Source: a virus. From it: DNA of 64,000 nucleotides. The translations under genes and the position numbers were made by a program. Every line of letters begins with the position of its first letter. Position 1 is the stretch's first letter. The stretch is taken from positions 174,526 through 238,525 of IMG/VR virus record IMGVR_UViG_3300045988_172839. One strand, written 5' to 3'. Below the pieces are notes generated by a model. That model was not told the origin of the DNA. It made no database searches and worked only from the letters and a program-made list of their open reading frames with translations. This document shows positions 1 through 64,000 of this stretch, piece by piece.

Positions 1-44
1 CAAGGTTGGAGCGGATACCGAGAATGCTAGTAAACCAACCACAG

Positions 45-485
45 CTATTTTTGTAAATTTTCGTAACACTGTTCAAATCTCCTTATGTAATTGTCCTCAA
101 GCTCTGAGTAATTCGAAACCAAAAGCATGTACTTATCAGAGGTAACTTTCTTATTGTAGAGGTAAAGCTCTGGTACTGCTATCTTAAATGCTTGGTGCAA
201 CAACTCTAAAGGAAAAGTCTCACGAAGTGATGAGATACCTTGCCTAGACAGTTCCGTAAGCTCAAATAAATCTTTATGTACCAAGCGATTAGAGTAGTTC
301 GTTAAGTTATTTTTTTTGTAATCAAAAGGGTAATCAAGAATTTCAAATAAACAAGTGTAACTCCCCTTTTTATTTGTTTGAACCACCCCTCTATAAAGCT
401 TATGTTTAAAAAGATTTACACACGAAACAGTGCGCTCAACCCCATCATCTTCAATTTCAACCTTGTACTTATATTTATCTTTCAT
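45..485 (-). CDS. hypothetical protein
   Basis: 146-aa minus-strand ORF in co-oriented gene array; no motif recognised. Confidence 0.5.
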   Translation of the reverse strand: MKDKYKYKVEIEDDGVERTVSCVNLFKHKLYRGVVQTNKKGSYTCLFEILDYPFDYKKNNLTNYSNRLVHKDLFELTELSRQGISSLRETFPLELLHQAFKIAVPELYLYNKKVTSDKYMLLVSNYSELEDNYIRRFEQCYENLQK

Positions 486-511
486 CTAAGTACCTTCTTT
501 TTCTAGTAAAG

Positions 512-1744
512 CTATTTAACTTTACAAAAGTCTTGAATTTCATAACCTAACTTTTCTTCCAGTTGCGAGGTGTAAAAGGATACCCTCTCACGGATTTGCG
601 AAACCTCTACGGAATACTGCTTTTGGTAAAGTTCTTCATCAAATAAAACTCCATAAGACAGTAACAAGAATAGAGTTGCAACTTCAATCGGAAGAACGGT
701 CGTTTCAAAGTGTAAGTTCTCATTTAAAACTGTAATCGGTACAGAATAAACAGACTCTACTTTAGTAATAAAATAATGCTCTGCGTAGACTGAGTTATTG
801 GTTTGAGCGTAGTTGACCCCCAAAGTGTCCCAACCTACCTCAACTCTGCTGACTGTTAGTGAAGGTTCCAAAAACTCAATGTAGCTACCATATAATTCTT
901 GAATAGACTCTGGGAGACCTTCAAAATCTTCTAATAAACCCTCTCTGGTCTTATAGACGTTGTAAGTATGGAACTGAACCTCTGTATCTGTGACCTTTGT
1001 AATCTTAGCCAAATGAACCTTGTTAATGAATTTGTTTGTACCTTTGCTACTGCGAACCTCTTCGTTTGCTACATAGCCTTTTTCATAGAGGAAAACGAGC
1101 GAACCAACCTGATACCCTTGCTCTTTAAAGAGCTTTTGTTTCTCAGAAATTGGTAACACCTCTTTGTTCATGTACCCATGAAAGCGAGCCATCTCAACAT
1201 AAAGTTGACTGTTAATCGTGTCTATATCTTTCGCACTCAAATCATAGTCAATCGGTAAATACTCAAAGAGTTTGAAATAGTAAAGAATACTGGACTCAGC
1301 TAACTCTGAGGAAAGACCTTTCACACTTAAATGAAAATCTCCTACAATCACATCAAGATAAATCGCAAACCACAAGACCACCAAACTATACGAGAGTTGG
1401 TAAGGGTAGTTACTAGGTTTCAAATAAGTATAGTTCTCTTCAGTTACCACAAAGGAAGTGCTTGAAACTCTGAAATTCTCTACGATTGTTTCAAAGTGAG
1501 CCAACAACCTCCGATAATCATAGCTAGGAGGAACTGCTGCTATAGTTTCTTTTAAAGTTAAAAGCTTACGAGCGGAAGCCATGCTGACATAGGGATACCC
1601 ATCTAGTTTACTGAGAGCGCTCGGTTCAAATGGAACTGTTGGAATGAACTCTGGAGTAGTTTTGTAAATCTCACTATAAGCAATATTATAGAAAGACCAA
1701 TAAAGAGCCTTATAGGGAGAGTCTATCGTGTATTTATCAACCAT
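512..1744 (-). CDS. hypothetical protein
   Basis: 410-aa minus-strand ORF abutting neighbours; no motif recognised. Confidence 0.55.
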   Translation of the reverse strand: MVDKYTIDSPYKALYWSFYNIAYSEIYKTTPEFIPTVPFEPSALSKLDGYPYVSMASARKLLTLKETIAAVPPSYDYRRLLAHFETIVENFRVSSTSFVVTEENYTYLKPSNYPYQLSYSLVVLWFAIYLDVIVGDFHLSVKGLSSELAESSILYYFKLFEYLPIDYDLSAKDIDTINSQLYVEMARFHGYMNKEVLPISEKQKLFKEQGYQVGSLVFLYEKGYVANEEVRSSKGTNKFINKVHLAKITKVTDTEVQFHTYNVYKTREGLLEDFEGLPESIQELYGSYIEFLEPSLTVSRVEVGWDTLGVNYAQTNNSVYAEHYFITKVESVYSVPITVLNENLHFETTVLPIEVATLFLLLSYGVLFDEELYQKQYSVEVSQIRERVSFYTSQLEEKLGYEIQDFCKVK

Positions 1745-1746
1745 CG

Positions 1747-2508
1747 TTAAACACCCTCAACCCTTTCAAACTCAACTTTGTTGTGGTTTGGGAAATTCTT
1801 CTTTTGAAGTTCTAAAACCAAATCTGCAGGGAGAGTTTTGTTCAAGGTCAGATACCGGGAGAGTGAACCCCAAGTCTTAATATCTTCAAGGCTTTCTGAG
1901 AGAACCTGCTTTAGCGTTTTCTCTACTTCTAAGACTCTTGTAAGAGCTTCTACAATCTCTTCTTTGGACTTCTCTTTAATCAAATCTATCTGGTAAAGCT
2001 CACTTGTACGCTGATTTAAAAGGTTTGGAGCGACTTGTACTAAAGGGAAATCTGAAATTTCTTCTATAATAGTAGAAAGTCCATCAGAATTGACTTGTAA
2101 ATACTCCTCAATCACTTGAAACTGACGGTTTTTCCAAAGACTTAATAAACCTGTCGGAAATCTTGACTCAAGACTTTCTTCAACTTTTAGACTTGCGTAG
2201 TAAACTTGACGAGAAGTCAATCCTGAAAGGTCTACGAGTTGCTTGCAGTTGAGTCCTGATCGATACAATTTCAAAAGACTAAGTGTGCTTTCTTCATTTG
2301 ACTTACTCAGATTTAAGTAAGACCCGCTCTTCAAAAAATCAACAAGCGTTTTTGCAAACTGCAAGTCCTCTACTGTTTGTAAGACCGAACTAGAAGGAAT
2401 GTGCTTGTTATTCTCTAATCTAGTTTGGAATAAAGTAATATCAGAATAAATCTGATTTAAAGTATTAAATATCGGTTTCTTTTTACTCATAAAAGTTAAA
2501 AACCACAC
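1747..2508 (-). CDS. hypothetical protein, possible helix-turn-helix
   Basis: 253-aa ORF; segment LNCKQLVDLSGLTSRQVYYASL resembles an HTH; start uncertain (ATG at 2490 also possible); sigma-A-like promoter at 2651-2679. Confidence 0.45.
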   Translation of the reverse strand: MWFLTFMSKKKPIFNTLNQIYSDITLFQTRLENNKHIPSSSVLQTVEDLQFAKTLVDFLKSGSYLNLSKSNEESTLSLLKLYRSGLNCKQLVDLSGLTSRQVYYASLKVEESLESRFPTGLLSLWKNRQFQVIEEYLQVNSDGLSTIIEEISDFPLVQVAPNLLNQRTSELYQIDLIKEKSKEEIVEALTRVLEVEKTLKQVLSESLEDIKTWGSLSRYLTLNKTLPADLVLELQKKNFPNHNKVEFERVEGV

Positions 2509-2650
2509 AAAAAACTACTATTTTATGATTTACTTTTAAAGCACAAAATAAATCATTCTACTTTTCTGTACTTTATCCTCTCTGTAAAATTTTCAGTCTG
2601 AAATCTAGCTATATGACTAGAAATTTTCTTTGCTGAATTTCTTAAGGTCT

Positions 2651-2679
2651 ATTATACATTATTTTAAAATAAAAATCAA
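2651..2679 (-). promoter_or_regulatory. sigma-A-type promoter (TTGATT-N17-TATAAT)
   Basis: minus-strand TATAAT at 2651-2656 and TTGATT at 2674-2679, 17-bp spacer. Confidence 0.45.
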
Positions 2680-2861
2680 GTAACAAGATGTACAAAATCT
2701 AAATCAAAATGAGATAAGTTTGGTATTTTTTGGACTAAAGTAAATAATTTGGATTGAAATAGAGTTTACTATAAAGAAAAACAAGTTTGAGGATACCGAA
2801 TAGAGGATTTGGGGAGTTCTTTCAATAGTAAAAAAAAACTGAAATTTAAAATTGACAGTTT

Positions 2862-2903
2862 GTTCTCTGTTCTCTGTTCTCTGTTCTCTGTTCTCTGTTC
2901 TCT
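2862..2903. repeat. tandem heptamer repeat (GTTCTCT)x6
   Basis: six perfect head-to-tail copies read directly. Confidence 0.95.
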
Positions 2904-3336
2904 ACTTTCCAAATTCGACCCAACTCAAAAATCTCAGAACTGAAAACTGAATTAGAAATGCACGTGGACTGAGGATACCGCAAGGGTGACTAGAGTTTGC
3001 TCTGATTTTCTTGGAATTAGAATGCTCCATGAACCTCTACTAATCTTACTGAAGTTTAAGTTACTTACTTAAATTAAGGCTTACAAAGAAGGAAGACCGC
3101 AAAACAAATCTGAAGCCCAACGGAGGTTGAGCGTTCCTATTAACAAAGTTAAAGCCAAAAGTAAAGACCAAAACTCAAAGCGAGGATACCACTGAGAGGT
3201 AGGTTGAGGAGTTGAAGTTTTAAGTTCAGACCTCAGACATTAAACCTGCACAACCAAGCAAAAAGCCACCAAATCCTTACGGAATTGGGGCGTTCCCTAA
3301 CCTTAAAACGAAAAATCAGCCTTAAACTTGAAAAAC

Positions 3337-3715
3337 CTATGACACAATTTAAGGAAACCTAAGACAATATATTCTCAATCTAGGACAGAAATTGAGAGAA
3401 TTAGGACAAATAAATCTCATTTTATGACAAACTTTAACCGTTTTAGGACAAACAAACCTTAATTTAGGACAAAAAGGCAAAGATTTATGACAAATTTAAA
3501 CAAAGTTATGACAAATAAACCTATTTCTACGACAAATAAAACCGTTTTTATGACAAAAAGACAAAGACTTAGGACAATTTTAAGTAAAGTTAAGACAAAA
3601 ATAACTAATCTTAAGACAGATTTTAGTACAATTAGGACAAGTGTATGACAGAATTACCTAATCTTAGGACAAAAAGTCTAAAATCTATGACAAAAATAAA
3701 AAGAGTTACGACAAG
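3337..3715. repeat. phased iteron array, about 19 copies of TTA(G/T/A/C)GACAA at roughly 21-bp spacing
   Basis: repeated ttaggacaa / ttatgacaa / ttaagacaa / ttacgacaa cores read directly; the spacers are A-rich and not conserved. Confidence 0.9.
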
Positions 3716-3940
3716 TCACAACTACTGCTTTTCAGAAGCCTAAATACAAGAAATAAGGGAGAAAAAGACACAAACTTCGCAAAAGTCTTGAAAATCTAGA
3801 TACCGCTGAGAGGGTTTAAGAACTAAATTTAGTTCTCAAAATCAAACCGCAGACATTTTTCCCTAAAATCAAGTTTAAAGGCTCTCATTTGCCCCGTGTC
3901 GCATTTTAAATTGAAGTTGGACATATTATACCATAAGAGG

Positions 3941-3969
3941 TTAAAATCAAATCTGGTGCAATCTGGGGC
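3941..3969 (-). promoter_or_regulatory. conserved intergenic element, copy 1 (CCAGATTG direct-repeat box)
   Basis: ttaaaatcaaatctggtgcaatctggggc matches 36880-36910 and 50697-50728; followed on the minus strand by TGGTATAAT (3927-3935). Confidence 0.4.
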
Positions 3970-4140
3970 TTTTTAGAGAAATAGAAAAAGTGAAGACTAA
4001 AATCTTCACTTATCTTCTACGTTTATTAAGGTTATGTTTAGGTTCATCTTCAAAACAGTCTGTGAAATCAACCTCTTTCGAACGATATAGGAAACCCAAA
4101 CTAACCAACATAAGGACTGCAAGTAATAACCACAAAGTCT

Positions 4141-4419: not shown

Positions 4420-4434
4420 TGTTTTTAACCTTTC

Positions 4435-4731: not shown

Positions 4732-4758
4732 AATCTATCTAAACGTGCAAGAGTTTCT

Positions 4759-5289: not shown

Positions 5290-5332
5290 TCTTTTAACCT
5301 CACTAAAATTTAATTTAAACTAGGAAAAGTCC

Positions 5333-6706: not shown

Positions 6707-6716
6707 CTCCCTCTAA

Positions 6717-7535: not shown

Positions 7536-7551
7536 CTCGATTTTCTCTTTT

Positions 7552-7580
7552 ATTATATCACAAATTTTAGTAAAAGTCAA
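7552..7580 (-). promoter_or_regulatory. sigma-A-type promoter (TTGACT-N17-TATAAT)
   Basis: TATAAT at 7552-7557 and TTGACT at 7575-7580 on the minus strand. Confidence 0.6.
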
Positions 7581-7993: not shown

Positions 7994-8041
7994 TATAGCG
8001 ACTTTCTTACCTTTTAAGTCAAAGTCATATTTGGCAAAGGT

Positions 8042-9392: not shown

Positions 9393-9476
9393 CCCAAAGA
9401 AATTTGGGATACCCAAAGAAATTTGGGATACCCAAAGAAATTTGGGATACCCAAAGAAATTTGGGATACCCAAAGG
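9393..9476. repeat. 19-bp tandem repeat x4.4, each unit holding the near-palindrome TTTGGGTATCCCAAA
   Basis: cccaaagaaatttgggata repeated head-to-tail, in the intergenic space between 9482..10219 and 8890..9354. Confidence 0.95.
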
Positions 9477-10672: not shown

Positions 10673-10708
10673 AAAAAGAGAGGATACCGCTTGGTAAACT
10701 CTCTTTTT
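10673..10708 (-). terminator. intrinsic terminator hairpin with GGTATC in the loop
   Basis: 10-bp stem aaaaagagag/ctctcttttt, U-run on the minus-strand RNA, directly after the stop of 10716..11099. Confidence 0.7.
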
Positions 10709-11160: not shown

Positions 11161-11197
11161 AAAAAGAGAGGATACCGCTAGGTAAAGCTCTCTTTTT
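11161..11197 (-). terminator. intrinsic terminator hairpin with GGTATC in the loop
   Basis: stem aaaaagagag/ctctcttttt followed by a U-run on the minus RNA. Confidence 0.7.
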
Positions 11198-15794: not shown

Positions 15795-16427
15795 TCATAA
15801 AATACTTGGTTTGTCAATAGAATCAAGCGTTCCGAAGTATAACAAATTCTCCAGTTTCTTACCCCATGCAGTTCCCTTAAACCAAACCACATATAAGTCA
15901 AGTGAACCTAAAGAAATGACTACAGATAAAAGGAATGTCAAGAAAACATAGAAAATATAACTAAGTGGAGGTATCATCGGATGATTGGGTCTTGGTAAGT
16001 TAGCTTTCAAAAAGTCAAAAAGCCCATAAAAAGCAAGACCACTTACGGTAAAAGCAAAAATAGGAAGTGACATATAACCTAAAACAAAAGCAAAAACCTG
16101 CAAAAGATACCGAATGTACTCTTCTTTGGGTTTGTTCTTGTACAAAGTTAGTTCAAAATCGTCACCTACTTTGACCCACTTATAGTAAGTGTAATCAAGG
16201 TTCAAATCCTCAATAACCTCTGAGAGTAAACCTAAACTAAAAAGCTCCTTTGACAAAATTCGAAGAGTTAACTTTTTTGATCCGCATAATGAAGGAGAAA
16301 AACTCAAAGTCTTAGTCATTACTTCAAAAACCTTATCTCTCACCGATTGAGACATAGGAGAGCTAACAATATCTTTAGGCAAGAAAACATAAGCATCATC
16401 GAAATAAGTTTGAATAAAATCAATCAT
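15795..16427 (-). CDS. membrane protein, paralog family member 2
   Basis: LTLYKNKPKEEYIRYLLQVFAF aligns with LTLYKTRPEAISRLYLAILL of 16420..17022. Confidence 0.55.
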   Translation of the reverse strand: MIDFIQTYFDDAYVFLPKDIVSSPMSQSVRDKVFEVMTKTLSFSPSLCGSKKLTLRILSKELFSLGLLSEVIEDLNLDYTYYKWVKVGDDFELTLYKNKPKEEYIRYLLQVFAFVLGYMSLPIFAFTVSGLAFYGLFDFLKANLPRPNHPMIPPLSYIFYVFLTFLLSVVISLGSLDLYVVWFKGTAWGKKLENLLYFGTLDSIDKPSIL

Positions 16428-32877: not shown

Positions 32878-32913
32878 GAAAAGAGAGGATACCGCACGAA
32901 GGTGAACCTCTCT
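32876..32913 (-). terminator. intrinsic terminator hairpin with GGTATC in the loop
   Basis: stem agagagg/cctctct, inner CACC..GGU pairing, U-run; after the stop of 32923..33591. Confidence 0.6.
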
Positions 32914-32922
32914 TCACAATAT

Positions 32923-34867: not shown

Positions 34868-35620
34868 TTAATCTAATTTGAAGCCTTGTTCCCAAGAAGC
34901 AGTGTCAAATCCTGCAAAGGGATTGGTGTCTGCGCTTGGTGTCGATTTAGGCGTTTCCTCAACTTTAGGAACGTCTACCTCTACAGTTTCAGTTGGAGTT
35001 GCACTACCAAATACACCACTCAACAAATCAACTGCGCTTGTATCTGTATTTGAAGGGGTTTCTACACTAGTTGGAATTTCTACGGTGTTTGGGGATACCA
35101 CTTGCTCTTCCTTAGTTGGAACCGTTTCTTCAAATTTAAGTTCCTTTGCAGGTTCTGGAATAAGTGGAGAGTCCCCTTTTGCAATATCAACAACTGCATC
35201 GTTTTCCAACATTTGAGCAGTCATCTCTTTTGCTTCTGCTTTGACTTCTTTGCTATCTGCTACTTCAACATCATAAGAAACCGCAGACACATCTTCTCCT
35301 GTAATTTCTTTAATGGTATCATAGTCTTTCTTTTCAACCGCTTCAAAGAACTTCTCTAAGCGCTCTGCTTCAGCAACTTTCTCAGCCAAGATTTTACTTG
35401 CAAGTGCTTTGTAAGCTTCAATCGACTCTTTTGTGAACTCTGTTTCACTAGCGAGTTCCATTTTAATCGGATACCCAAGGGAGTTGAGGATTTCAACTTC
35501 TTTCAAAATCGCTTGAACACGAGCCTTTTTAGACCCTCGAATTTCTTGCTCTTTGCGGTTATGCTCCAATGCTTGTTTATTTAGAGACTCTAATCGAGCC
35601 AATGTTTGTTCTACTGACAT
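34868..35620 (-). CDS. acidic coiled-coil protein
   Basis: 250 aa, heptad-rich N-terminus, Glu/Thr/Pro-rich C-terminal half. Confidence 0.5.
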   Translation of the reverse strand: MSVEQTLARLESLNKQALEHNRKEQEIRGSKKARVQAILKEVEILNSLGYPIKMELASETEFTKESIEAYKALASKILAEKVAEAERLEKFFEAVEKKDYDTIKEITGEDVSAVSYDVEVADSKEVKAEAKEMTAQMLENDAVVDIAKGDSPLIPEPAKELKFEETVPTKEEQVVSPNTVEIPTSVETPSNTDTSAVDLLSGVFGSATPTETVEVDVPKVEETPKSTPSADTNPFAGFDTASWEQGFKLD

Positions 35621-39930: not shown

Positions 39931-41416
39931 GTTTGTTTTACCTCAAGTTTTTCTAAGCAATAATTAGCATTATTTAGTAATTTAAAGCAATTTCTAAGCA
40001 ATTTAAAGCATTTTAAGCAATGTGTAACTACCGTTAGTCTTTTGTTTCTTTTGTAAAGCTTTCTATTCAGTATCTTTAGTAAAGTAAAATCTGCTAGTTT
40101 AACTAACAGTATGTAACCAAATTTTTGAAAGAGGAATTACTAAGCAACCAAATCAATTAACCAACAAATTAACAAAATCTTAGTCTATCATCCAGACCTA
40201 ACGATAGTTGTGCCTTTTGAGGTAATCTCATAAAACCAACAGTGCGACTTCTCAGCCGGACTTAAAAAGCCAACGAAAAAGGACACCCTTAACAGTGGTT
40301 ACGGTAGTCTCTACATTGGCTTTGCCTGTCATCACGACGGTCAAATAAATTAAGTGTCCTGTACGGACTTCAGTAAGCTAAACTTACTTATAAGTCATAA
40401 GCCTTTTACAACTTATGACCTGAAAAAATTTGGAAAGGAAATAGTTCAACGAGAACCACTCGGAGCTAGGAAAATAAACCTAAAAACTAGCTCCTATAAC
40501 CTAAAGACCTTTTACAATCTCTAAGTTTGAAAAGAAAGGGACAACTATGCGTTATCTAAATTGGTGAACCAAAATTCAACCATAAATCACAAATCTTTTA
40601 TAATTGGTGACCTAATAGGTTCAAAGGGTTGTTACAAATGTTAAAAACAGATATAAATGTACCATTCAATTCTTAACGCTCCACAATAACTTGCTTTGCA
40701 AGTTATTGTTTCCGCTAAAGGCATCCTACGATACCCCTAAACCCGCTCTTAAATAAAGATAAGATATAGGTTTACATTTAAAAGTTAAATTTAAGTTTTT
40801 AAACCTCGTCAGATAAATAAGTCTCAAAGACCAAGGACGGTGGGTTTTATTTGTATTCAAATGAATACAAAGATTACTTAATTTATTTAACCTTTAAAAT
40901 ACAATTAAAGAAAAGGTATTAAGATAAACTTAACTACCCTTGTGAAAGAAAAGAATAAACTTTTCCTCACAATGAGCTTTGAACCTTTTACAATTCAAAG
41001 CCCTGAACCAAAATAAATACTAGGAGAACATCAATGAGCAAACAAAGTCACGCATTAAACATTCTAAGAGGAGGGAACCAATCTCCTCTAAAAGTTGCAG
41101 ACCTCTTACAATCTACAACTCAAAAAGAAAAGAAGAAATTCTAAGATTTCTTTTGGTAAGGATGAGAAAACCTTACCTATCACATAACAACTGATTAAAG
41201 TTGCTATATGCACTACTTAATAGGAGAATCAAGTATGGAAAAATTAAGAAGTTTTGTTCAAATATTGAACACCCTACAAAATTGTAGGTATTAGTTGCAA
41301 ACCTTTTACAATCTGCAACCACAACTAAATAATATAAGGAGTGCTTACCTAACGGTAAAGTGAGCTACTTTATTAAAAATAGATCACAGTAAAGTATTTA
41401 TCAACTTTACTTATTT
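39931..41416 (-). ncRNA. 1.5-kb gene-free, hairpin-rich transcribed leader or large ncRNA candidate
   Basis: no ORF of 60 aa or more on either strand; own consensus promoter at 41417-41445; five decaloop hairpins plus many other 7-12 bp stems. Confidence 0.4.
39951..40023. repeat. about 7 phased 10-bp repeats (TTGCTTWAAA on the minus strand) just upstream of the RBS
   Basis: aagcaat / aagcatt cores recur at about 10-bp spacing. Confidence 0.8.
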
Positions 41417-55747: not shown

Positions 55748-55942
55748 GGTTTAAATGAGGATACCCTCTCAATATCTTATTCGGTTTTCCCCAACGAGGT
55801 CTCCACTGAAAACCCTAGACAAAGCTTGTCAATAAACCCGTGGGTAGTCTAAAAACTTTATAACGCTTAAGTATACTCTAAGTAACACTTTTATATTAAC
55901 TCATGTTATACATGTGTGGTTTTATAGTCTTTTCCTTGACAA

Positions 55943-56013
55943 CTAAGGTAGCTGGATTCGAACCAACGATGAAGGAGTCAAAGTCCTTTGCCTTACCTCT
56001 TGGCTATACCTTA
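55943..56013 (-). tRNA. tRNA-Gln (anticodon TTG)
   Basis: hand-folded cloverleaf: acceptor TAAGGTA/TACCTTA, D GCC/GGC, anticodon arm AAGGA-CTTTGAC-TCCTT, T-arm GTTGG-TTCGAAT-CCAGC; no encoded CCA. Confidence 0.85.
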
Positions 56014-56208
56014 ACAATAAAAGATGTAGCTGATTGGTACAGCGCTCTTCCCAATCACTTGCGCCAAACACGTTCGTATCCAGACTACATCGTAACAACA
56101 TATCTTCCTAACAACGAGGATGGTATGTTGTCACCAAGTATACTTGGGGAAGCAAGAACCCAATACCACTGTTTCTCACCAGTGAACTAGTTTCTCTCCA
56201 TAATCCCA

Positions 56209-56281
56209 TGCAGATTAACGGACTCGAACCTCTGACCCTCTGATTACAAATCAGATGTTCTACCAACTGAACTAAATCTGC
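56209..56281 (-). tRNA. tRNA-Thr (anticodon TGT)
   Basis: acceptor GCAGATT/AATCTGC, D GTTC/GAAC, anticodon arm TCTGA-TTTGTAA-TCAGA, T-loop TTCGAGT; one mismatch in the T-stem. Confidence 0.8.
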
Positions 56282-57168
56282 TCACTAAGTTTGTGGTCAA
56301 GCACTTAGAAAACTTGTCAAAGGACTCCAACCCTTCGAAGAAAGCACCCACGGTTAACCAATCTCATTAGGTTCCGAGTATCTTGGAATTATGTGCTTTT
56401 TATTTTAGGATTCCCACCTATAGACCTTCTACCAAAGCCTATCCCCGTCGAGTATTGAGCATACCCAGTCAACTTTGTTACTGCTTGGTTTTCACTAGTA
56501 GTTGACCTAGAGTTTCTTTTTTGGGTTCTAAAGAAACTTAAACCTCAAGTTTGTGTAGCTGAGAGGTTCGTGCGCACGTCCTCTCACTTACCCCAATCAC
56601 TAAGCGCGACTGAACTACATCATTTAAAAGAGAAAATAACTTTTCTCAAATGCTCGATACCGAAGTGTTAGAGCAAACACCTCAGCAATTTATTTTCTTG
56701 GATTTTTACTTAAGGGGTCAAGGGGTGGAAAAGACAAACCGTTGCCAAAACTGCGCCTTGCGTCCACCTAGTTTTAATGTACACTCAACTAGGATTTACC
56801 GCCTGAGTTTATCGACTTCATCGGATTATTGGTCACGTATAAAAGGTATTTACTTATAGCTTCAATTTTGTAAATGTGTTCTCCCCTAAAAGTTATTTTG
56901 ACAAAGCAGGGAACAAGCAGTTAGAAGTTCTTAACACGTTTTCCATAAATGACTATGTTAGACAGGGAGCCATGTTATATCAGATTTACAAACAAAATAC
57001 AAGTAAATTCGGGTTTAAACCCTCACCCGCGGTGTACACCGAAAACCCTAATCAGAAGCTCGTCTAAGATACCGTGAGGTAGCACCTTAAAATCAACGCT
57101 CGTTTAACGTCCAAAAGACGAAACAGTTTAGGTGTCTTATTTAGGACAATAATTACTAAGTAACAAAT
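56282..57168 (-). ncRNA. about 0.9-kb gene-free, comparatively GC-rich structured segment between the methyltransferase gene and tRNA-Thr (large ncRNA candidate)
   Basis: only plus-strand shadow ORFs; stems such as CCTAGTT/AACTAGG, GGTGGA/TCCACC and CGC-AAG-GCG; starts with the 30-nt box shared with the tnpB 3' flank. Confidence 0.4.
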
Positions 57169-57972
57169 TTAGTTCTTCTGAAAAACACAAACCATTTTCG
57201 TATCAAAAGGAACTAAGTCTAGCTCAAAGTAATTCTGTAAATAAGCTAAATAACTCTGATCCTTATATCTATGAATACCTTGCAACTGCAAACAATCTTT
57301 CCAAGGATACGCAATCCACTTTATGAAGGCATTTGTAACATTATATTGCTCTTTTGACTCTCGACTCAAAGACTTCAAACCCCAAACTGTATGAAAAATA
57401 ATCTCATAAGCATTTTTAACAGTAGTTACAATAGAACCGTCTTCTTTTGTCTCAACAGTATCAATAATCGAGTTTTTCTGAAGTTCTTTAATCCAAGTAT
57501 GTATTTCTATCTCACTTTGTTTTGAAACAGGTCGGAGCGTAAATGTCTCAGATACCAAATCTGGGTTAGCCCAATCTCGAATAACTAGAGAACCACCTGT
57601 TTTTAAACTATTTACAATCATGGATATGGTTTCTGTACGTTCTTGACGAGTTAAATAACTCATAATTTCGTGGAAAACACTAGAGAGATAAATTATATCA
57701 AATTGAAGTTCCCCTTTAAGTAACTCTTGTTTAGTTACCACATTTACACCCATACGAGATAAAGTAGTTTGCACAGTCGGAGAAATATCATAAGAATAGT
57801 AATTAGTACCTGTAGAAACTACATTAGCTATAAACTCATAAGAAATACCAGAACCAAAATCCAAAAGTGTAACCCCCTCTCCAAGAAATGGCTCAACTAC
57901 CTTAAATTTAGACTCAGCAGTTTGGTTCATTCTTTGAATATAGCTATTATTATCACTTAAATAGTTATCCAT
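57169..57972 (-). CDS. class I SAM-dependent methyltransferase
   Basis: VTLLDFGSGISYEF (motif I), FDIIYLSSVFHEI, LKTGGSLVIRDW. Confidence 0.65.
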   Translation of the reverse strand: MDNYLSDNNSYIQRMNQTAESKFKVVEPFLGEGVTLLDFGSGISYEFIANVVSTGTNYYSYDISPTVQTTLSRMGVNVVTKQELLKGELQFDIIYLSSVFHEIMSYLTRQERTETISMIVNSLKTGGSLVIRDWANPDLVSETFTLRPVSKQSEIEIHTWIKELQKNSIIDTVETKEDGSIVTTVKNAYEIIFHTVWGLKSLSRESKEQYNVTNAFIKWIAYPWKDCLQLQGIHRYKDQSYLAYLQNYFELDLVPFDTKMVCVFQKN

Positions 57973-58216
57973 TAAATACTCTCTCAGTTTTTCTACATGT
58001 TTAGAAAAATATCAATTATTAGACTTCCATTTTTGAAGAAATCTGATAACTTGTTCTACTTCTGACTTAGATAAATCGTAAGTACCACAGTCATACGAGC
58101 CTTTAGTTTGACAAGTAATAGATACCCCATCATTATATCCTTGTATGGTTTAATCTCCATCAGCATTCTCAAAATCTAATTGACTCATAATTACACATTT
58201 CCTTTTCTCATAGTTA

Positions 58217-58287
58217 TGTACCTTGTAGGAATCGAATCTACGATCCTCAGCTTATGAGACTGAAGATCTACCAACTGCTACCATTCC
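58217..58287 (-). pseudogene. tRNA-like element with CAT anticodon loop but no matching acceptor strands
   Basis: good anticodon arm TCAGT-CTCATAA-GCTGA and T-loop TTCGATT, but 5' GGAATGG cannot pair with 3' AAGGTAC and the D-stem is defective. Confidence 0.35.
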
Positions 58288-58303
58288 ACTTTAATTTAAC
58301 AAA

Positions 58304-58374
58304 CACAGGCAGTAGGAATTGAACCCACACTGACGATTTTGGAGACCGTAGTTCTACCTTTAAACTATGCCTGT
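58304..58374 (-). tRNA. tRNA-Trp (anticodon CCA)
   Basis: acceptor ACAGGCA/TGCCTGT, anticodon arm ACGGT-CTCCAAA-ATCGT, T-arm GTGGG-TTCAATT-CCTAC. Confidence 0.9.
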
Positions 58375-58378
58375 ATAA

Positions 58379-58459
58379 TGGAAAGAGAGGGATTCGAACC
58401 CCCGAACCCGAAGGAGCGGATTTACAGTCCGCCGCGTTTAGCCTCTTCGCTATCTTTCC
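58379..58459 (-). tRNA. tRNA-Tyr (anticodon GTA), long variable arm
   Basis: acceptor GGAAAGA/TCTTTCC, anticodon arm GCGGA-CTGTAAA-TCCGC, T-arm GGGGG-TTCGAAT-CCCTC. Confidence 0.9.
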
Positions 58460-58470
58460 GAATATTAAAA

Positions 58471-58833
58471 CTAAGTTTGACCATACAATAGACTATTACT
58501 AAACTCAAGCACAACCTTGAAAACTGTATCTATGTTTAGAGTGAAAAGTAAGATAAGTAGTCCAAATAAGATCTTTGAGACTAGTGAAGGTAGAATATCT
58601 TCAATCGAAAGACCTAATAATTCTAGTTTAATCTCAATTAGATATTTGAAAATTATCATCCCACCAAATGCAATGGCAACCGCACCATCAGTATTAGGTT
58701 GAGGAAAACCAAAGTAAATATGTAATTTATACAAAATCACCCAAGCTAGTAAACCTAAAGCAGAAGAAAGGATACCACCTGCAAGGTAAAGTAACGCTTC
58801 GTTTCGTAAATCTTTAAACCAACTACCTTCCAT
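58471..58833 (-). CDS. small membrane protein
   Basis: 120 aa with 3 hydrophobic helices; its RBS (AAGAGG) lies inside the anticodon-loop remnant of the upstream tRNA 5' half. Confidence 0.5.
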   Translation of the reverse strand: MEGSWFKDLRNEALLYLAGGILSSALGLLAWVILYKLHIYFGFPQPNTDGAVAIAFGGMIIFKYLIEIKLELLGLSIEDILPSLVSKILFGLLILLFTLNIDTVFKVVLEFSNSLLYGQT

Positions 58834-58880
58834 ATTCCAACCTCTTCAAACCAATGCTCTACCAACTGAGCTACCTTTCC
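58834..58880 (-). pseudogene. tRNA 5' half (Phe-GAA-like) with no 3' half
   Basis: GGAAAGG-TA-GCTC-AGTTGGTA-GAGC-A-TTGGT-TTGAAGA, then runs straight into the ATG of 58471..58833. Confidence 0.5.
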
Positions 58881-58930
58881 TAAAATGTGGAGACTCCTTA
58901 GAGGAGAGTTCGCACATATAAACCAACAAA

Positions 58931-59003
58931 CGGTCTCGAAGGGAATTGAACCCTCGATCTCTGCCGTGACAAGGCAGCGCGATAACCACTACGCTACGAG
59001 ACC
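58931..59003 (-). tRNA. tRNA-Asp (anticodon GTC)
   Basis: acceptor GGTCTCG/CGAGACC, anticodon arm CTGCC-TTGTCAC-GGCAG, T-loop TTCAATT. Confidence 0.9.
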
Positions 59004-59007
59004 TAAT

Positions 59008-59089
59008 GTGATAGGAAGGTCTTGAACTGACTTCCCTAGAAGTAACGGCACCTCTCCTTACTGCATCAACCTACAAATGCTTCTATCAC
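59008..59089 (-). other. atypical 82-nt tRNA-like cloverleaf with extended, bulged arms
   Basis: terminal stem GTGATAG/CTATCAC, D-like GCAT/ATGC, two roughly 7-bp bulged arms with 7-nt loops AGAGGTG and AGTTCAA. Confidence 0.3.
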
Positions 59090-59100
59090 TTAACAAAAAA

Positions 59101-59385
59101 TTAAAAGCCACCAAGAACTAAACATTCTTCCAAAGGTCTAAGAACGAGGTTTTGAAATTTAAGAAAATCCGGATACCCTAAACTATCTCTATAATGTAGC
59201 AACTGTCTTGAGAAGTAAAACTCTGTACCGTTGTAGTAAACATTACCAAGATATTCTCCAGTATGTCGATTACGCACCATAACTGCTTTAGTACCTACTA
59301 CAAAATATAGGTCTTTAACTCTAGTTCTATGTTGGATAATCAAGCGTCTAAGACTTACTGGTAATAGTTTTCTGACTCGTTTCAT
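59101..59385 (-). CDS. hypothetical protein
   Basis: 94-aa basic ORF; AAAGGAGAAG RBS. Confidence 0.5.
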   Translation of the reverse strand: MKRVRKLLPVSLRRLIIQHRTRVKDLYFVVGTKAVMVRNRHTGEYLGNVYYNGTEFYFSRQLLHYRDSLGYPDFLKFQNLVLRPLEECLVLGGF

Positions 59386-59900
59386 TCTACTTCTCCTTTC
59401 TTTTTGATAAATAATATGACTTCGGAGGGAGTCCCACCCACGACACCTGCGCTTGGTGTATTGTAAACATCAAAGCCACGTGTGTTTTTAATTCTGATAA
59501 CTAACTAGACCTTTGTCCAAGGCTTGCAACACACAAAACACCGTAAATCCACTAATGCATCTATACCCCTACACAAGAGGTAAGACCATTAGCGCAACTT
59601 CCAACTCGTGCACAAGTTGGAGGGCTGGCTGTCGCCCTTGTCGTTGCCGACAATACACCATACAGGATTCGAACCCGTGTTACTGCCGTGAAAAGGCAGT
59701 GTCTTAACCCCTTGACCAATGGTGCTTAAGGAGGGCAGGTCTCTGTTTTCCAACAGACGGATTTGGATGCACTGATCGACTGTGTACTTTTATTTGGGCA
59801 GCCCACGTTTCCCTTGTAGACAAATATGTGCAGATGTTTGGTAGTCGTTACCAAACGCTCAGTCAAATCTATCTACTGCAAAAATTAACTTCACGAATTT
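59386..59900 (-). ncRNA. promoter-driven roughly 0.5-kb non-coding unit with tRNA-Glu embedded between structured flanks
   Basis: promoter at 59901-59929; flanks contain GNRA-capped helices (TCTGTT-GGAA-AACAGA, GTCG-GCAA-CGAC) and CCAACT/AGTTGG. Confidence 0.4.
59654..59725 (-). tRNA. tRNA-Glu (anticodon TTC)
   Basis: acceptor GCACCAT/ATGGTGT (one G.U), anticodon arm CTGCC-TTTTCAC-GGCAG, T-arm ACGGG-TTCGAAT-CCTGT. Confidence 0.85.
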
Positions 59901-59929
59901 ATTATAACACAAAGAGTCAAGTTTGTCAA
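59901..59929 (-). promoter_or_regulatory. sigma-A-type promoter (TTGACA-N17-TATAAT, TGn)
   Basis: hexamers at 59924-59929 and 59901-59906. Confidence 0.65.
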
Positions 59930-59985
59930 TAAGTTTTAATTAAAAGTTCACTATTTACTAAATTAGTTAGAAACTTACCGAAAGC

Positions 59986-60348
59986 TTAGAGTGCTGTGTG
60001 ATACTCTTTTAATAGCCTAAGTTCCCTTTCATATTCACGTTGAAGTTTTAAACGCTCCGATTTAGTTTCTTCGGTCATAGGGATTTCAAAAAGCATAGAA
60101 GCATAATTGTGAGTAAACAACTCATAGGTATCATTGAAGTCTACAACAACAAACCAAAGAAACTTAACCTCAGTAAGAGTTGTTTTAGTGTTTAAAGTTA
60201 GTTGAATCCCACAGTTTAGAATCTCATTTAAAGGGTTTGAAGCAAGTTGCTCAAAAGTGAATCCCATATGTTCATTTTCATTGCTCTGAATAGTCTTATA
60301 ATCCCCAAACAAAGGACTGAGAGAAGAAGTATCTAACAAAGAAATCAC
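59986..60348 (-). CDS. hypothetical protein
   Basis: 120-aa ORF; start uncertain. Confidence 0.45.
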   Translation of the reverse strand: MISLLDTSSLSPLFGDYKTIQSNENEHMGFTFEQLASNPLNEILNCGIQLTLNTKTTLTEVKFLWFVVVDFNDTYELFTHNYASMLFEIPMTEETKSERLKLQREYERELRLLKEYHTAL

Positions 60349-60577
60349 ATCCTACTTAGACAAATACCCATATTTCTCAAAAATCTTTAATAACCTAGTG
60401 TAGCTCTTAGGGAGTGAAAAGTAGCGAACTGTATCACTATATAAAAAAGTAGAACCCTCACTCAACCTAAGTAACTTCATAACAAAACTCCTTAAAAATC
60501 TTTATTTAATATAGTATACCATATAAGTCTAAGAATTACAAACATAAAAAAAAGTAAGTAAATCAACTAAGGCTTAC

Positions 60578-60823
60578 TTACAATACTTCACTTGAAGGTT
60601 CATATTCTTTTAAAAGTTCATCTAAATCATAGTTTGGAATATCTAACTGATCAGACTTATTTCTTAAAATAATCTTCCCATCTTCAAAAATAAACTCTAC
60701 CTCATTACCTTCAGACAAATTTAAGTTTTCTAAAACTGTAGTTGGTAGAAGGATACCCTTACTGTTTCCCCATTTAGTAACCTTTTTAGTTCCTAAACTG
60801 CATCGATAATGTTCTTTAACCAT
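60578..60823 (-). CDS. AbrB/MazE/SpoVT-family DNA-binding (antitoxin-like) protein
   Basis: VTKWGNSKGILLPTTVLENLNLSEGNEVEF is the swapped-hairpin barrel signature. Confidence 0.65.
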   Translation of the reverse strand: MVKEHYRCSLGTKKVTKWGNSKGILLPTTVLENLNLSEGNEVEFIFEDGKIILRNKSDQLDIPNYDLDELLKEYEPSSEVL

Positions 60824-60837
60824 CTAAGAATCACCCC

Positions 60838-61188
60838 CTAATCATCAATTAAATCTAAGTATAAAGAGCTGAGAAGATTTTCCAAACTATCAACTGCTGC
60901 TTTATTGCAATCAACACGTAAATACTCATCATCTGGGAAAATATCTAACCAATCTAAACTTGTAGGGTAAAAACCTGTCTCTTCATAAATCTGTGCAGAA
61001 ACTTCATCTAAAGTTTCCGCTAGTTTGTCTACATCAGTAGGTTTAAAATCACCTAAACCACAAATTGCACCGTCATCTTCCCAATAATAAGGATTGATAC
61101 AAATATGGACACTACAAGGATATTCATTTAAAGCTTCTTTTGCTAAAGTTTTAGTTATAAAAGACATTTCAATTTCCTTATCTTTCAT
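60838..61188 (-). CDS. acidic hypothetical protein
   Basis: 116 aa, strongly Asp/Glu-rich. Confidence 0.5.
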   Translation of the reverse strand: MKDKEIEMSFITKTLAKEALNEYPCSVHICINPYYWEDDGAICGLGDFKPTDVDKLAETLDEVSAQIYEETGFYPTSLDWLDIFPDDEYLRVDCNKAAVDSLENLLSSLYLDLIDD

Positions 61189-61195
61189 TAGTTTA

Positions 61196-61562
61196 TGGAG
61201 CCGGTGGGAGTCGAACCCACGTCCAAACGACCTTTCCAGCTAACCTTACTGCGCACTGCTACGTTTTAACATTCTACTTTTAGGAAACGCACAAAGCTAA
61301 AAGTTATATCTCTCTTTAACAAACTAAGTTGAGAAATCTTAGTTGCGAGTACCGATGTTTATAGCAACTAAAAGATACCGGTACTTATCTTAGTCGCTCG
61401 TCTATTCGACTTTTTACTTGTGTTGAGTGACAACTAAGCCGAAGCTTAGGCAACCATTTCAACTGGTGCATTGTTATTTGCAGTTATGTTTAGGTTGGTG
61501 ATTACGTCACCACTCGGTACGAGGTTAAAAGGTACAATCGCCTGTCGAATCCAAGCGACCCC
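61196..61562 (-). ncRNA. ssrA: tmRNA (ssrA)
   Basis: 5' GGGGTCGCTTGGATTCGACAGG and 3' GTGGGTTCGACTCCCACCGGCTCCA form a tRNA-Ala-like acceptor with a G3.U pair and a T-arm; internal ORF ..GCA AAT AAC AAT GCA CCA GTT GAA ATG GTT GCC TAA followed by a UUCG-capped helix; about 367 nt. Confidence 0.85.
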
Positions 61563-61578
61563 TCATTAAGATAAATCT

Positions 61579-61607
61579 ATTATATCAGAAAGATGGTTAA
61601 ATGTCAA
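61579..61607 (-). promoter_or_regulatory. sigma-A-type promoter (TTGACA-N17-TATAAT, TGn) for the tmRNA
   Basis: hexamers at 61602-61607 and 61579-61584, about 17 nt upstream of the mature 5' end. Confidence 0.7.
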
Positions 61608-61874
61608 GGGTTATTTGTGCTATTCTCAGCTTTTGTAGGTGTTTTTGCGAATAAAAGTAAACCAAACAAACCTGCGAACCACAGGAACATCAAGGATACT
61701 CCTCTCAATTATAACTTACTATTGAGTTCATATTGGTTAAATAGAGTTGAAACATGAGAAACTACATCAATCGGAAAACTATACTCAATAGTAATAAACA
61801 AGGTAAATGCGAAGAGGAAACATAAAACTATGTAAACATTCAAAAACTTAATTTTCATTCAAGACCTCTATTTA

Positions 61875-62162
61875 TTAAGCTATCGTCCGTTGAGACAAGA
61901 ACGAAAGAAGTTCTTCTGGGGTTTGGCATCTCATCAACCGTTTAAATTCTAAACTATCTGCAATTATAGACTCAAACTCCATGTTTTGAGTTGGATCATA
62001 ATAACCTATAGTCAAACAATTACCCTCATCTACTCTTATCTGAGCAGACACTCCCCACTCACTATCGAAATCTTCTAAAACTACTTCTAAGTGTCTTTGT
62101 AACTCACTTAAACTAGACTCTAATTCGTTATGTAGTTTCATCATTTTGTTGTAGGTTAGCAT
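61875..62162 (-). CDS. hypothetical protein
   Basis: ATG at 62162 preceded by GAGGGAAGGG; the track ORF extends to 62207. Confidence 0.45.
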   Translation of the reverse strand: MLTYNKMMKLHNELESSLSELQRHLEVVLEDFDSEWGVSAQIRVDEGNCLTIGYYDPTQNMEFESIIADSLEFKRLMRCQTPEELLSFLSQRTIA

Positions 62163-62341
62163 TTTGTGGATACCCTTCCCTCTTAGATATAAAAAGTTTA
62201 CCAGCAAGAAGTTATACCAGTAAACGGGAACATTATGTGATTTATATAGCGGTTCATAACCTTGAGGAGCTTAACTCTAGAAAATAAACACCTCAACAGC
62301 ATTCTTGACTTCTGTTCAATCGCACCGCTACGAAAATCTTA

Positions 62342-62429
62342 CGGAGAATAAGGGATTCGAACCCTTGCGCCAGTTACCCGACCTAACGATTTAGCAAACC
62401 GTCCTCTTCAACCTCTTGAGTAATTCTCC
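62342..62429 (-). tRNA. tRNA-Ser (anticodon GCT)
   Basis: acceptor GGAGAAT/ATTCTCC, anticodon arm ACGGT-TTGCTAA-ATCGT, long variable arm, T-arm AAGGG-TTCGAAT-CCCTT. Confidence 0.9.
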
Positions 62430-62925
62430 AAACTAAAGGGAACCTCTTTGAAAAGAGGATACCCTTACGGTTTGTTTTCCGAAGTAAACCTTACTTCTAC
62501 ACTTCACGTCGCGAACTAGAGTGTAACGAGAGTTCTTTAGAACCCTAACGGTTGTACGTTAGGGGATTTTGTCAGTCTCTAAATGACGATGTTTAGGAAC
62601 CAATATAGGTTCTATAAGTTGCTAACCTTTTACAGTTAACAACCTTCCCGAAAGGAGGATTTAATGAAAGCTAACCTCTCTCCCATTCTCATGAGGAGAG
62701 GAATGATGTAAAAACCTTTAACAGTTCTTACACCAAATAAATTAGAAAAAGAAGGTCTAACTAAACGCTAGAACCAGCCTAGCGAGGAACCAATCAAAAC
62801 CAACTAGACTAGGAGGTAGCGACCTTTGAAAGCCGATACCCCAGTAAACAAAATGCTCTATAACTCTGCTGCACATTTTAAAACATTAGGAGTTATTTTC
62901 TTGAATTGAAATTACTTCAATTCAA
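62430..62925 (-). ncRNA. structured 0.5-kb spacer between the two tRNA-Ser genes (two decaloop hairpins)
   Basis: no ORF; hairpins at 62618-62643 and 62708-62731, plus a 10-bp stem at 62900-62924. Confidence 0.35.
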
Positions 62926-63016
62926 CGGAAGATGTGGGATTCGAACCCACGCGCCGTTTTACCGACCTGACGGTTTTCAAGACCGTTCCCTTATAGCCAG
63001 ACTTGGGTAATCTTCC
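62926..63016 (-). tRNA. tRNA-Ser (anticodon TGA)
   Basis: acceptor GGAAGAT/ATCTTCC, anticodon arm ACGGT-CTTGAAA-ACCGT, long variable arm, T-arm GTGGG-TTCGAAT-CCCAC. Confidence 0.9.
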
Positions 63017-63467
63017 ATGAGGGAAGGTTTCAACCCGTGAAGATTGAAACCCCACCCTAAATTCTAAGAGGATTCATGGAAAATGTGAAAACCATGAATT
63101 TTCCCACACAACAAAGTGTGGTATAACGCAAAGACCTTTGAAAATCATTGCGCTTGAATAAAATTAAGAGGTATTTTGAAAGCAAGTCCTGATCACGAAA
63201 CTCACTTATCAACCAAATTCACTTTAGTAGTAGTTTAGGACATGACTTCACAAAATCCTTGAAAGACATTGTTACTGACTCTAAAATTTGCAACTACTAA
63301 AGCTACGACTCAGCAACCTTCTTCAGATTGCCAAGCCTAAAGGATACAAATCTCACCTACCGAGAAAATACTTACAAATAAACTCAGTAGGCTACGACTC
63401 AACAACCTTATTCAAATTGTTGAGCCTAAAAGGTAACACATACAAAAAATATACATTACATTTGGCA
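63017..63467 (-). ncRNA. structured 0.45-kb spacer with a duplicated roughly 50-nt hairpin module
   Basis: gctacgactca(g/a)caacctt..ttca(g/a)attg.. repeated at 63302-63350 and 63391-63440, with compensatory stem changes. Confidence 0.35.
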
Positions 63468-63542
63468 TCGGAATTGCAGGATTCGAACCTACGACCCCGT
63501 GTTCCCAAAACACGTGCGCTAACCAAACTGCGCTAAATTCCG
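63468..63542 (-). tRNA. tRNA-Pro (anticodon TGG)
   Basis: acceptor CGGAATT/AATTCCG, D GCGC/GCGC, anticodon arm CGTGT-TTTGGGA-ACACG, T-arm GTAGG-TTCGAAT-CCTGC. Confidence 0.9.
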
Positions 63543-63558
63543 ATAATATAAAAGGTAA

Positions 63559-63697
63559 TGAGGATAGAGGGAATTGAACCCTCGGTCATAAGCAGTCGCT
63601 GCCTTACCCCTTGGCTATACAACGACCTAGTCGTCGTAAAAGGATTCGAACCCGTGGTCTACGGTCTCTTATTGCCTTACCACTTGGCTATATCCTC
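63559..63697 (-). other. composite nested tRNA-like element (a permuted tRNA-like module inside the anticodon stem of another)
   Basis: outer 7-bp stem GAGGATA/TATCCTC; two D-arms (GCC-AAGTGGTAA-GGC, GCC-AAGGGGTAA-GGC); two T-arms (TTCGAAT, TTCAATT); inner hairpin TACGACG-ACTAGGT-CGTTGTA; ATAAG/CTTAT helix at the anticodon-stem position. Confidence 0.6.
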
Positions 63698-63789
63698 GAT
63701 AATTAAAATACGAAGAGCAAGAGATTTGCTCTAAGAACTTCTGCAACCCTCTTTCAAGCATTGCACGCCGTTGTGGCACAAAGACAAAT

Positions 63790-63891
63790 ACCACCGCAAG
63801 GATTCGAACAGTTTTCAAAGAAAACTCCGCTGATCTACCGGCTCATCTATGTAAGTCATGACTCAAACATAAGCACCATGCTATCGGTGGT
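63790..63891 (-). pseudogene. tRNA-derived element (decayed tRNA-Lys-like core closed by a new 7-bp terminal stem)
   Basis: ACCACCG/CGGTGGT terminal stem; the interior GAGCCGGTAGATCAGCGGAG..TTTTCTTTGAAAAC..TTCGAATCC resembles tRNA-Lys(TTT) but lacks a T-stem and its own acceptor. Confidence 0.3.
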
Positions 63892-63932
63892 AATCAGGAT
63901 TTAAACGTTTAAACTTCCACTTCGCAATGGAA

Positions 63933-64000
63933 CTCCACCAACTGGGTTCGAACCAGTGACATCATGATTAACAGTCATGCGCTCTACCAACTGAGCTATG
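63933..64000 (-). tRNA. tRNA-Asn (anticodon GTT), 5' end truncated by the window edge
   Basis: D GCTC/GAGC, anticodon arm CATGA-CTGTTAA-TCATG, T-arm ACTGG-TTCGAAC-CCAGT, 3' acceptor TGGTGGA. Confidence 0.8.

Follow-up and report, generated by a model that had tools for sequence, protein, structure and literature searches.

The 64,000-nucleotide stretch at positions 174,526 to 238,525 of the IMG/VR virus record IMGVR_UViG_3300045988_172839 (the window) repeats one short word, 5'-GGTATC-3', on its coding (-) strand and hardly ever on the other. What is this word for, and what reads it? Here, we report that the one-strand motif is a real, genome-wide signal: strictly polar, enriched 20- to 40-fold, evenly spaced, independent of genes, conserved in position among relatives, and absent from host DNA. 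Its full unit, 5'-SGGTATC-3', is most probably read by an enzyme of the virus that initiates or cleaves a single DNA strand. Tentatively, we propose that SGGTATC is a cis-acting start signal for discontinuous (lagging-strand) synthesis, read by a replication enzyme of the phage.

The + strand of the window has 107 copies of GATACC and 4 of the reverse complement, GGTATC (binomial P = 5e-27 for the split). The first-pass annotation, made by eye, had counted about 105 and the same four reverse copies at identical positions. The k-mer comparison with a Markov null that it had outlined gave, for the 64-kb window and orders 0 to 3, 7 to 17 expected copies of GATACC and 7 to 10 of the reverse complement; composition is no explanation. 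The top strand-skewed 6-, 7-, and 8-mers were all fragments of this same word. SGGTATC occurred 93 times on the coding strand and 0 times on the opposite strand (expected, 2 to 5), and SGGTATCY was split 71:0; the reverse complement, which the first-pass annotation had allowed might prove equally abundant, is not.

Read on the coding strand, the consensus was D-S-GGTATC-Y. Position -1 was G in 51 and C in 42 of the 107 sites, position +6 was C in 52 and T in 32 (the flanks agree with the earlier description), and C was very rare at position -2. Information content beyond these nine positions was close to background, and no frequent word of 14 or more nucleotides included the motif; a longer hidden motif was ruled out, since information content and conservation footprint both stop at about 9 nt. 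The wider context, taken over the window and a 140-kb tiling path, was weak: C was raised at -20 to -4 (0.19 versus a background of 0.156) and at +7 to +20 (0.22), and T was raised at +21 to +40 (0.36 versus 0.32). None of the 18 one-mismatch variants of the hexamer showed comparable enrichment or skew (the largest, GGTTTC, was split 36:14), so the hexamer must be exact. The four reverse-orientation hexamers lack S at -1 and therefore look like chance background copies.

The motif does not follow the genes. All 57 open reading frames of at least 120 aa in the window lie on the - strand, which bears out the co-orientation reported earlier. Motif copies were spread over reading frames 0, 1, and 2 (23, 30, and 30) and non-coding DNA (24), at 1.6/kb in coding and 2.0/kb in non-coding sequence; the three frames, non-coding DNA, the spaces separating tRNA genes, and the interiors of long genes all had the same density. 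A synonymous-codon shuffle, also outlined in the first-pass annotation, left about 17 coding sites versus 83 observed. Distances from motif to gene start were near random, and long genes bore 6 to 7 spread copies (7 in a 4.2-kb gene); a role as promoter or ribosome-binding site was ruled out, there being no positional tie to gene starts or ends. Frame counts, shuffle, and the conservation given below support selection on the nucleotide sequence, not on peptides, as had been argued earlier from the presence of the motif in all three frames and in non-coding DNA. The small ACC-N4-GGT hairpins in which the motif had often been seen do exist, although at a minority of sites only (20/107, versus 6% of control GGT triplets), and a general hairpin or accessibility context was rejected on these counts and on an accessibility like that of controls.

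The window is part of a roughly 240-kb (about 245 kb) jumbo phage. Its proteins are encoded on about 238-kb contigs of human oral metagenomes, and it spans the end of one ~238-kb contig, consistent with an assembly that is circular or circularly permuted. Searches of isolated phages with megablast and tblastn found no relative. We examined about 150 kb (about 60%) of the genome by walking outwards from both window ends. Over this length, the motif occurred 263 times forward and 10 times in reverse, with a single polarity, and hence the bias is not confined to the window, a point that the first-pass annotation had left to be settled. Gene orientation was likewise that of one strand (window plus loci L082, L086, L166, L183, L188, L283, L305, L335, and L348), which seems unusual for a jumbo phage. 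A polarity switch of the kind shown by FtsK-orienting polar sequences (KOPS) was not seen in this part of the genome. GC skew had one sign throughout, with G > C on the motif strand, the sign expected of leading-strand sequence, i.e., of the lagging-strand template.

Every IMG/VR relative keeps the bias, with 34 to 48 forward versus 1 to 4 reverse copies per 20 kb, so that the strict polarity claimed at first holds for about 150 kb and for all relatives. These relatives encode a DnaG-type TOPRIM protein whose identity to that of the window ranges from 97% to 52%, and the most divergent members use GGGTATC (38:0 and 21:0), a shift from S to G at -1. Unrelated phages with distant homologues of the TOPRIM, TnpB, or tail proteins had no such motif; it is a property of the clade that carries the window-type TOPRIM protein. 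In relatives at 76 to 77% nucleotide identity, 71 to 77% of sites were kept, versus 24 to 25% for hexamers generally, and the conservation footprint comprised the hexamer and positions -2 and -3 only. In one divergent relative (L195/L196), a second one-strand word, AGGAGCCTA, was also observed (9 to 11:0 per 22 kb). The first-pass annotation had matched this sequence to no published motif, and the searchable literature indeed contained no description of the motif or of the phage clade; a phage-related full-text search for GGTATC yielded primer sequences only.

The even spacing of the sites is a new feature. The mean gap in the window was 593 bp (the earlier estimate was about 600 bp), with about one site per 570 bases overall. 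The coefficient of variation (CV) of the gaps was 0.58 versus 0.99 ± 0.09 for random placement; gaps of <150 bp numbered 2 versus 22 expected, and the longest gap was 1,827 bp versus a random mean of 3,178 bp. Values for the 140-kb tiling path were similar (CV, 0.61; median gap, 495 bp; longest gap, 1,989 bp). Such spacing is a coverage requirement, with a site installed by selection wherever a stretch lacks one: chance sites are rare, and the even pattern is therefore the product of selection installing sites in empty stretches. Three exceptions were found, all in non-coding or recently acquired DNA, namely, a 19-bp tandem array, a cluster with a period of ~137 bp, and an IS605-type insertion in one relative, which is motif-free and opens a 3.4-kb gap. 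Since this insertion is still motif-free, the motif was installed slowly by selection and not by rapid mutation. Where a site had been lost, no compensating site was seen within 100 bp; the neighbors of lost sites were 105 to 501 bp off.

As the host chromosome lacks the signal, its reader should be encoded by the phage, and this reader must be directional, acting on one strand or tracking along DNA. It is possible that Okazaki fragments are begun only at the about 430 evenly spaced, single-strand SGGTATC sites, by a heptanucleotide-specific primase system of the phage. The genome would be copied in one direction, in sigma or rolling-circle style, co-directionally with transcription, and the coding strand would then always be the displaced strand and thus the lagging-strand template. 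That placement holds if replication and transcription are co-directional, and the sign of the GC skew matches it. A primase system made of the zinc-finger-less DnaG-type TOPRIM protein and a putative specificity factor would recognize the heptamer and start the primer, which by analogy with T7 (a cryptic 3' C) might read 5'-pppAUACC(S). A 7-nt site is rare by chance (2 to 5 per 64 kb), so the sites were installed by selection, which would have placed one per ~570 nt and would hold every gap below about 2 kb. We infer the direction and mode of replication, the primase as reader, and the primer sequence. In a possible variant, the same sites would be programmed nicks, and synthesis of one strand would begin from them again and again.

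The coverage-type spacing, the Okazaki-scale density, and the single polarity are best accounted for if the motif starts lagging-strand synthesis. Short gaps would be few and long gaps missing because each stretch of template would need a start site nearby, and one polarity over at least 150 kb is expected because unidirectional sigma-mode replication always displaces the same strand. The reading also fits the GC-skew sign, the conserved TOPRIM protein, and the FEN-type 5'-3' exonuclease gene in or near the window, which could serve primer removal; the motif cluster beside a helicase gene and the lack of a polarity flip at an iteron array speak for it as well. The 256-aa TOPRIM protein matched DNA primase PHROGs (2e-23), Toprim_2, and the Aquifex and Escherichia coli DnaG cores. 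The primase-like gene named in the first-pass annotation is thereby confirmed as a predicted TOPRIM primase core, and its product is a candidate for the reader or for the reader's partner.

Several points weigh against such a start signal. We know of no primase with a specificity of 6 to 7 nt, and zero tolerance of single mismatches is more typical of nucleases. T7 primase sites, counted in the same way, were neither polar nor even (161 on the top versus 159 on the bottom strand; CV, 0.92 to 1.0), and given these sites there is no precedent for genome-wide primase-site wiring. The zinc-binding domain is the template-reading part of T7 gp4 and DnaG, and neither such a domain nor CxxC motifs were found in the TOPRIM protein or its neighbors; on both counts, the T7 primase analogy drawn in the first-pass annotation is weak. 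Annotation scans with PHROG and Pfam covered about 50 proteins, and neither a DNA polymerase nor a replicative helicase was identified among them or elsewhere in the examined ~60% of the genome. Predicted single-strand accessibility of the motif equalled that of control hexamers. The direction of replication rests on inference, and with all genes co-oriented with the motif, a transcription-linked and a replication-linked reading are inseparable. The iteron array is a candidate replication origin or, alternatively, a candidate partition centromere for an actin-like protein encoded in or near the window. Neither GC skew nor motif polarity changes across it, and if it is an origin, then replication would be unidirectional or the motif would not be replication-linked.

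Close behind the lagging-strand start comes site-specific single-strand nicking of the T5, phiKMV, or tf type, a reading that we consider somewhat doubtful. A phage nickase would cut at or near SGGTATC, and one strand of the virion or replicating DNA would be interrupted at intervals of about 570 nt. The first-pass annotation had listed a nick target only as one alternative; it has the closest documented precedent, phage tf, and the lagging-strand start is still preferred. Phage tf carries 14 copies of TACTRTGMC in 46 kb, all on one strand and all nicked; site positions are similar in its relatives, with a slightly variant motif, and single substitutions abolish nicking (PMC3517423). Among documented phage motifs, nick sites alone combine all of the properties seen here (one strand, enrichment, positional conservation, and exact match), and the S-to-G shift at -1 in the sister clade parallels the motif variation between relatives of tf. 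A TOPRIM fold could also be that of a nuclease, and a helicase of the UvrD/PcrA type, a class that loads at nicks, is encoded beside the motif cluster. The density here is nonetheless 5 to 10 times that of tf, the even spacing is without counterpart there, and no known function of nicks would demand coverage. The PHROG and Pfam scans of about 50 proteins turned up nothing of the nickase kind (HNH, GIY-YIG, or similar). Contig ends, a weak proxy for nicks, were not associated with the motif in 45 public contigs (median distance, 425 bp).

It is unlikely that the motif is a phage-private Chi-like or guide sequence, at which a phage-encoded tracking enzyme would change its activity or direction. 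Such an enzyme might be a helicase-nuclease, a DNA pump like FtsK/SpoIIIE, or the motor for packaging or ejection, and the motif would mark phage DNA as self, leaving unmarked host DNA to be degraded or ignored. Chi and KOPS are typically polar, enriched, and independent of genes, as the motif is; a host without the signal would permit discrimination of self from non-self, and coverage fits the need of any broken end to meet a site soon. A UvrD-family helicase is present beside the motif cluster, but it is of UvrD/PcrA/Rep size and type and has no nuclease domain, and RecB matches it weakly; moreover, neither an AddAB/RecBCD-like or FtsK-like gene nor the polarity switch that KOPS show at a terminus was seen in the examined part of the genome. 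The motif is also about 8 to 20 times as dense as Chi or KOPS in E. coli.

A signal in transcription or RNA is more unlikely still. The motif would be a non-template-strand element for elongating RNA polymerase or a NusG/RfaH-like factor, or a GGUAUC bound or cut in every transcript. The ops element of RfaH, GGCGGTAGNNTG, resembles the GCGGTATC subset of sites; every gene seen points the same way, with the motif invariably on its coding (non-template) strand; and terminator hairpins and non-coding leaders have copies too. Its copies nevertheless show no tie to gene starts or ends, lie evenly spaced inside long open reading frames, and have no structural context; one lies inside the transfer-messenger RNA (tmRNA) gene, where cleavage would harm. 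Position -1 is G as often as C, unlike in ops. Expression signals (sigma-A promoters and hairpin terminators) stand apart from the motif, and no NusG-like factor or domain was seen among the Pfam annotations or the about 50 proteins scanned.

A very improbable reader is the host itself, through a streptococcal RexAB Chi or a KOPS-like signal borrowed for protection. The host is probably an oral Streptococcus, judged from the HU protein and the lysin. Phage HU shares 85 to 88% identity with its counterparts in oral streptococci (S. parasanguinis, S. intermedius, S. australis, S. mitis, and S. oralis), a similarity that points to a recent host origin of the gene and indicates the host genus; the lysin, used in the same kind of host search, gave no result. 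The motif does resemble host Chi and KOPS in being a polar, G-containing leading-strand oligomer, and its orientation agrees with the GC skew. Across 23 Streptococcus chromosomes (454 kb in total), however, GGTATC occurred 110 times and GATACC 116 times (Markov expectation, 123 and 106), while the published Chi of Streptococcus and Lactococcus, GCGCGTG (PMC5959072), used as a control, was skewed 49:10 in the same loci. With host DNA showing neither enrichment nor skew of the motif and the known Chi skewed, the motif is not the streptococcal Chi or KOPS, and the window has 1+1 copies of GCGCGTG. A phage-borne copy of a host Chi, one of the options first offered, is therefore refuted for a streptococcal host.

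Just as improbable is a by-product without a dedicated reader, left by codon or dinucleotide usage (coding-strand composition skews many oligomers) or by avoidance of a Type III restriction site (which can give single-orientation hexamers, as with the EcoP15I site CTGCTG of T7, 36:0): it was refuted by the null models, the favored orientation standing 6- to 40-fold above every one of them, the synonymous shuffle included, and the disfavored orientation being only mildly low (4 versus 6 to 9 expected), and equal non-coding density, positional conservation, and even spacing follow from neither avoidance nor codon use. The remaining probability is spread over host Chi, by-product, and other readers.

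Coordinates of the features discussed are given in Table 1.

Table 1. Positions of motif-bearing elements, repeats, expression signals, and genes (window coordinates unless a locus is named)
Feature	Position	Strand	Remarks
Reverse-orientation GGTATC hexamers	15970..15975; others start at 35315, 49525, 60127	+	A or T at -1 in 4/4
DnaG-type TOPRIM/RNA-polymerase core protein, 256 aa	42336..43106	-	EGxxD and DxDxxG motifs
Tandem array of 19-bp units, (GGTATCCCAAATTTCTTTG)n	9393..9475	-	Intergenic; 4 motif copies
Terminator hairpin, motif in upper stem and loop	10673..10708	-	AAAGAGAG..TACCaagcGGTATC..CTCTCTTT
Second motif-bearing terminator hairpin	11161..11196	-	Built as at 10673..10708; promoter after it
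Third motif-bearing terminator-like hairpin	32878..32915	-	
Host-type promoters, cTTGACa-N17-tGATATAAT, extended -10	Near 7559, 10649, 11137, 14251, 15064, 19590, 24502, 54674, 61586	Coding	
Iteron array, TTGTC(N)TAA, 21-bp period	3401..3672	-	Inside a 2.2-kb non-coding stretch (about 2508-4140)
Motif cluster, 6-7 GGTATC copies, ~137-bp period	L082 11093-11817		About 0.6-1.3 kb beyond window position 1
IS605-type insertion (OrfB and Cas12f-like TNB domain)	L083 14637-16521		Beside helicase gene in some assemblies; GGTATC-free
Microsatellite, (AGAGAAC)6, perfect, 7-bp unit	2861-2903	Coding	Public scaffold L085 ends inside
TAAGCAATTT repeat, 6.8 copies, 10/21-bp period	39954-40021		In a 1.5-kb non-coding stretch
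TnpB/IS605 OrfB-like protein, 482 aa	51572-53020		
tRNA cluster (10)	55942-64000		
Phage tmRNA	61193-61562		Unusual tag ANNNAPVEMVA
HU gene	L183 4501-4776		About 2.4-2.7 kb past window position 64000
DNA methylases	L082 19117-20415; L283 11440-12768, 18729-19715; L335 10871-11695; window 57169-57972		

The first-pass annotation had placed the motif four times in the 19-bp array and in three terminator hairpins, and it was found in all of these. Array copy number was 1, 4, or 5 across assemblies. A promoter of the form TTGACA-N17-TGATATAAT directly follows the first motif-bearing terminator; the real promoters share this form and are separate from the motif, and several of those examined directly follow a hairpin terminator. 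Their sequence suggests that the sigma-A RNA polymerase of the host transcribes the units behind them.

The iteron array had 10 exact, co-oriented pattern matches, or about 19 when degenerate copies were read by eye, and is flanked by motif copies at 2797, 2979, 3190, and 3804. About 4.5 kb from it lie the ~137-bp-period motif cluster and the helicase gene, the cluster occupying a 1-kb non-coding region directly upstream of that gene. Its units have GGGTATCTCATC...AATTTT in common, and it is kept in close relatives with variable copy number. The TAAGCAATTT repeat lies upstream of a 458-aa gene at 38554-39930.

Other genes in or near the window encode a CHAP/PcsB-type lysin, a DHH phosphoesterase, the actin-like protein, a Ser/Thr kinase, and several DNA methylases. 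The methylases include at least three C5 cytosine enzymes, one N6/N4 enzyme, and one further methyltransferase, and their targets could include the motif. The tRNA genes numbered 10 by Rfam and 9 by ARAGORN, in addition to the tmRNA, in which the single GGTATC copy falls in a badly aligned, variable part. The TnpB/OrfB-like gene was rejected as a multi-copy element; it is single, syntenic, and 87 to 89% identical in all close relatives, and therefore looks like a resident and possibly domesticated gene, not a mobile copy. Homologues of its product at 36 to 41% identity were seen in Geobacillus virus E3 and in large Clostridium phages.

Polar oligomers of the Chi, KOPS, and phage nick-site kinds offer a rare view of how enzymes track along DNA. 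The motif described here is unusual in four ways, being present once per 570 bp, exact, even, and private to a clade of uncultured oral-streptococcal jumbo phages, and this combination means that each genome presents a one-strand, 7-nt word to some enzyme of the phage at hundreds of places. Should that enzyme be a primase, the phage would provide the first example of a genome that encodes its Okazaki start sites, and a sequence-specific primase could be a useful tool. Should it be a nickase, no known viral genome would be nicked more heavily or more regularly, and the phage would offer a new nicking specificity and a handle on the unsolved purpose of phage nicks. Under either reading, the motif is a simple marker for spotting the clade in metagenomes.

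Among known systems, the nick sites of tf/LUZ24, the phiKMV-like phages, and T5 are likewise short, exact, one-strand motifs, above chance and independent of transcription units, with conserved positions and slight variation between relatives; compared with tf, the phage described here has ~430 sites per genome versus 14, about 5 to 10 times denser and even. The sites of T7 gp4 (5'-GTC and preferred pentamers) and the trinucleotide sites of DnaG are strand-specific starts on the lagging template, as proposed here. The motif ends in TC, so that its 3' C might be cryptic, as in T7, and the primer might begin with ATP; known primase sites, however, are 3 to 5 nt long and need no enrichment, whereas the motif is an exact 6- to 7-mer. 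The single-strand origins (sso) and single-strand initiation sites (ssi) of rolling-circle plasmids are also strand-specific start signals on a displaced template, as would be the case here, but they are long, structured elements found once or twice per replicon.

Chi (RecBCD, AddAB, and RexAB) and KOPS or SpoIIIE recognition sequences (FtsK and SpoIIIE) are, like the motif, polar, over-represented leading-strand oligomers, and are read by tracking enzymes; the motif differs in being denser, not present as a signal in the host chromosome, and not GCGCGTG, and no cognate enzyme was found in the examined part of the phage. CTGCTG in T7 (36:0) is likewise an asymmetric hexamer kept in one orientation in a co-oriented phage genome, the product of avoidance; in our phage, the retained orientation is up to 40-fold enriched, even, and positionally conserved, and Type III avoidance is no explanation because it cannot create a 6- to 40-fold excess, even spacing, and positional conservation. 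The uptake signal sequences of Haemophilus and the DNA uptake sequences of Neisseria are short words too, highly abundant and with a more regular spacing than random placement would give, which indicates selection for coverage; those occur in both orientations and on a bacterial chromosome, and an uptake function would be pointless in a lytic phage. Polar, over-represented oligomers are already known from phage genomes, and it is the density, regularity, and scale of SGGTATC that are new.

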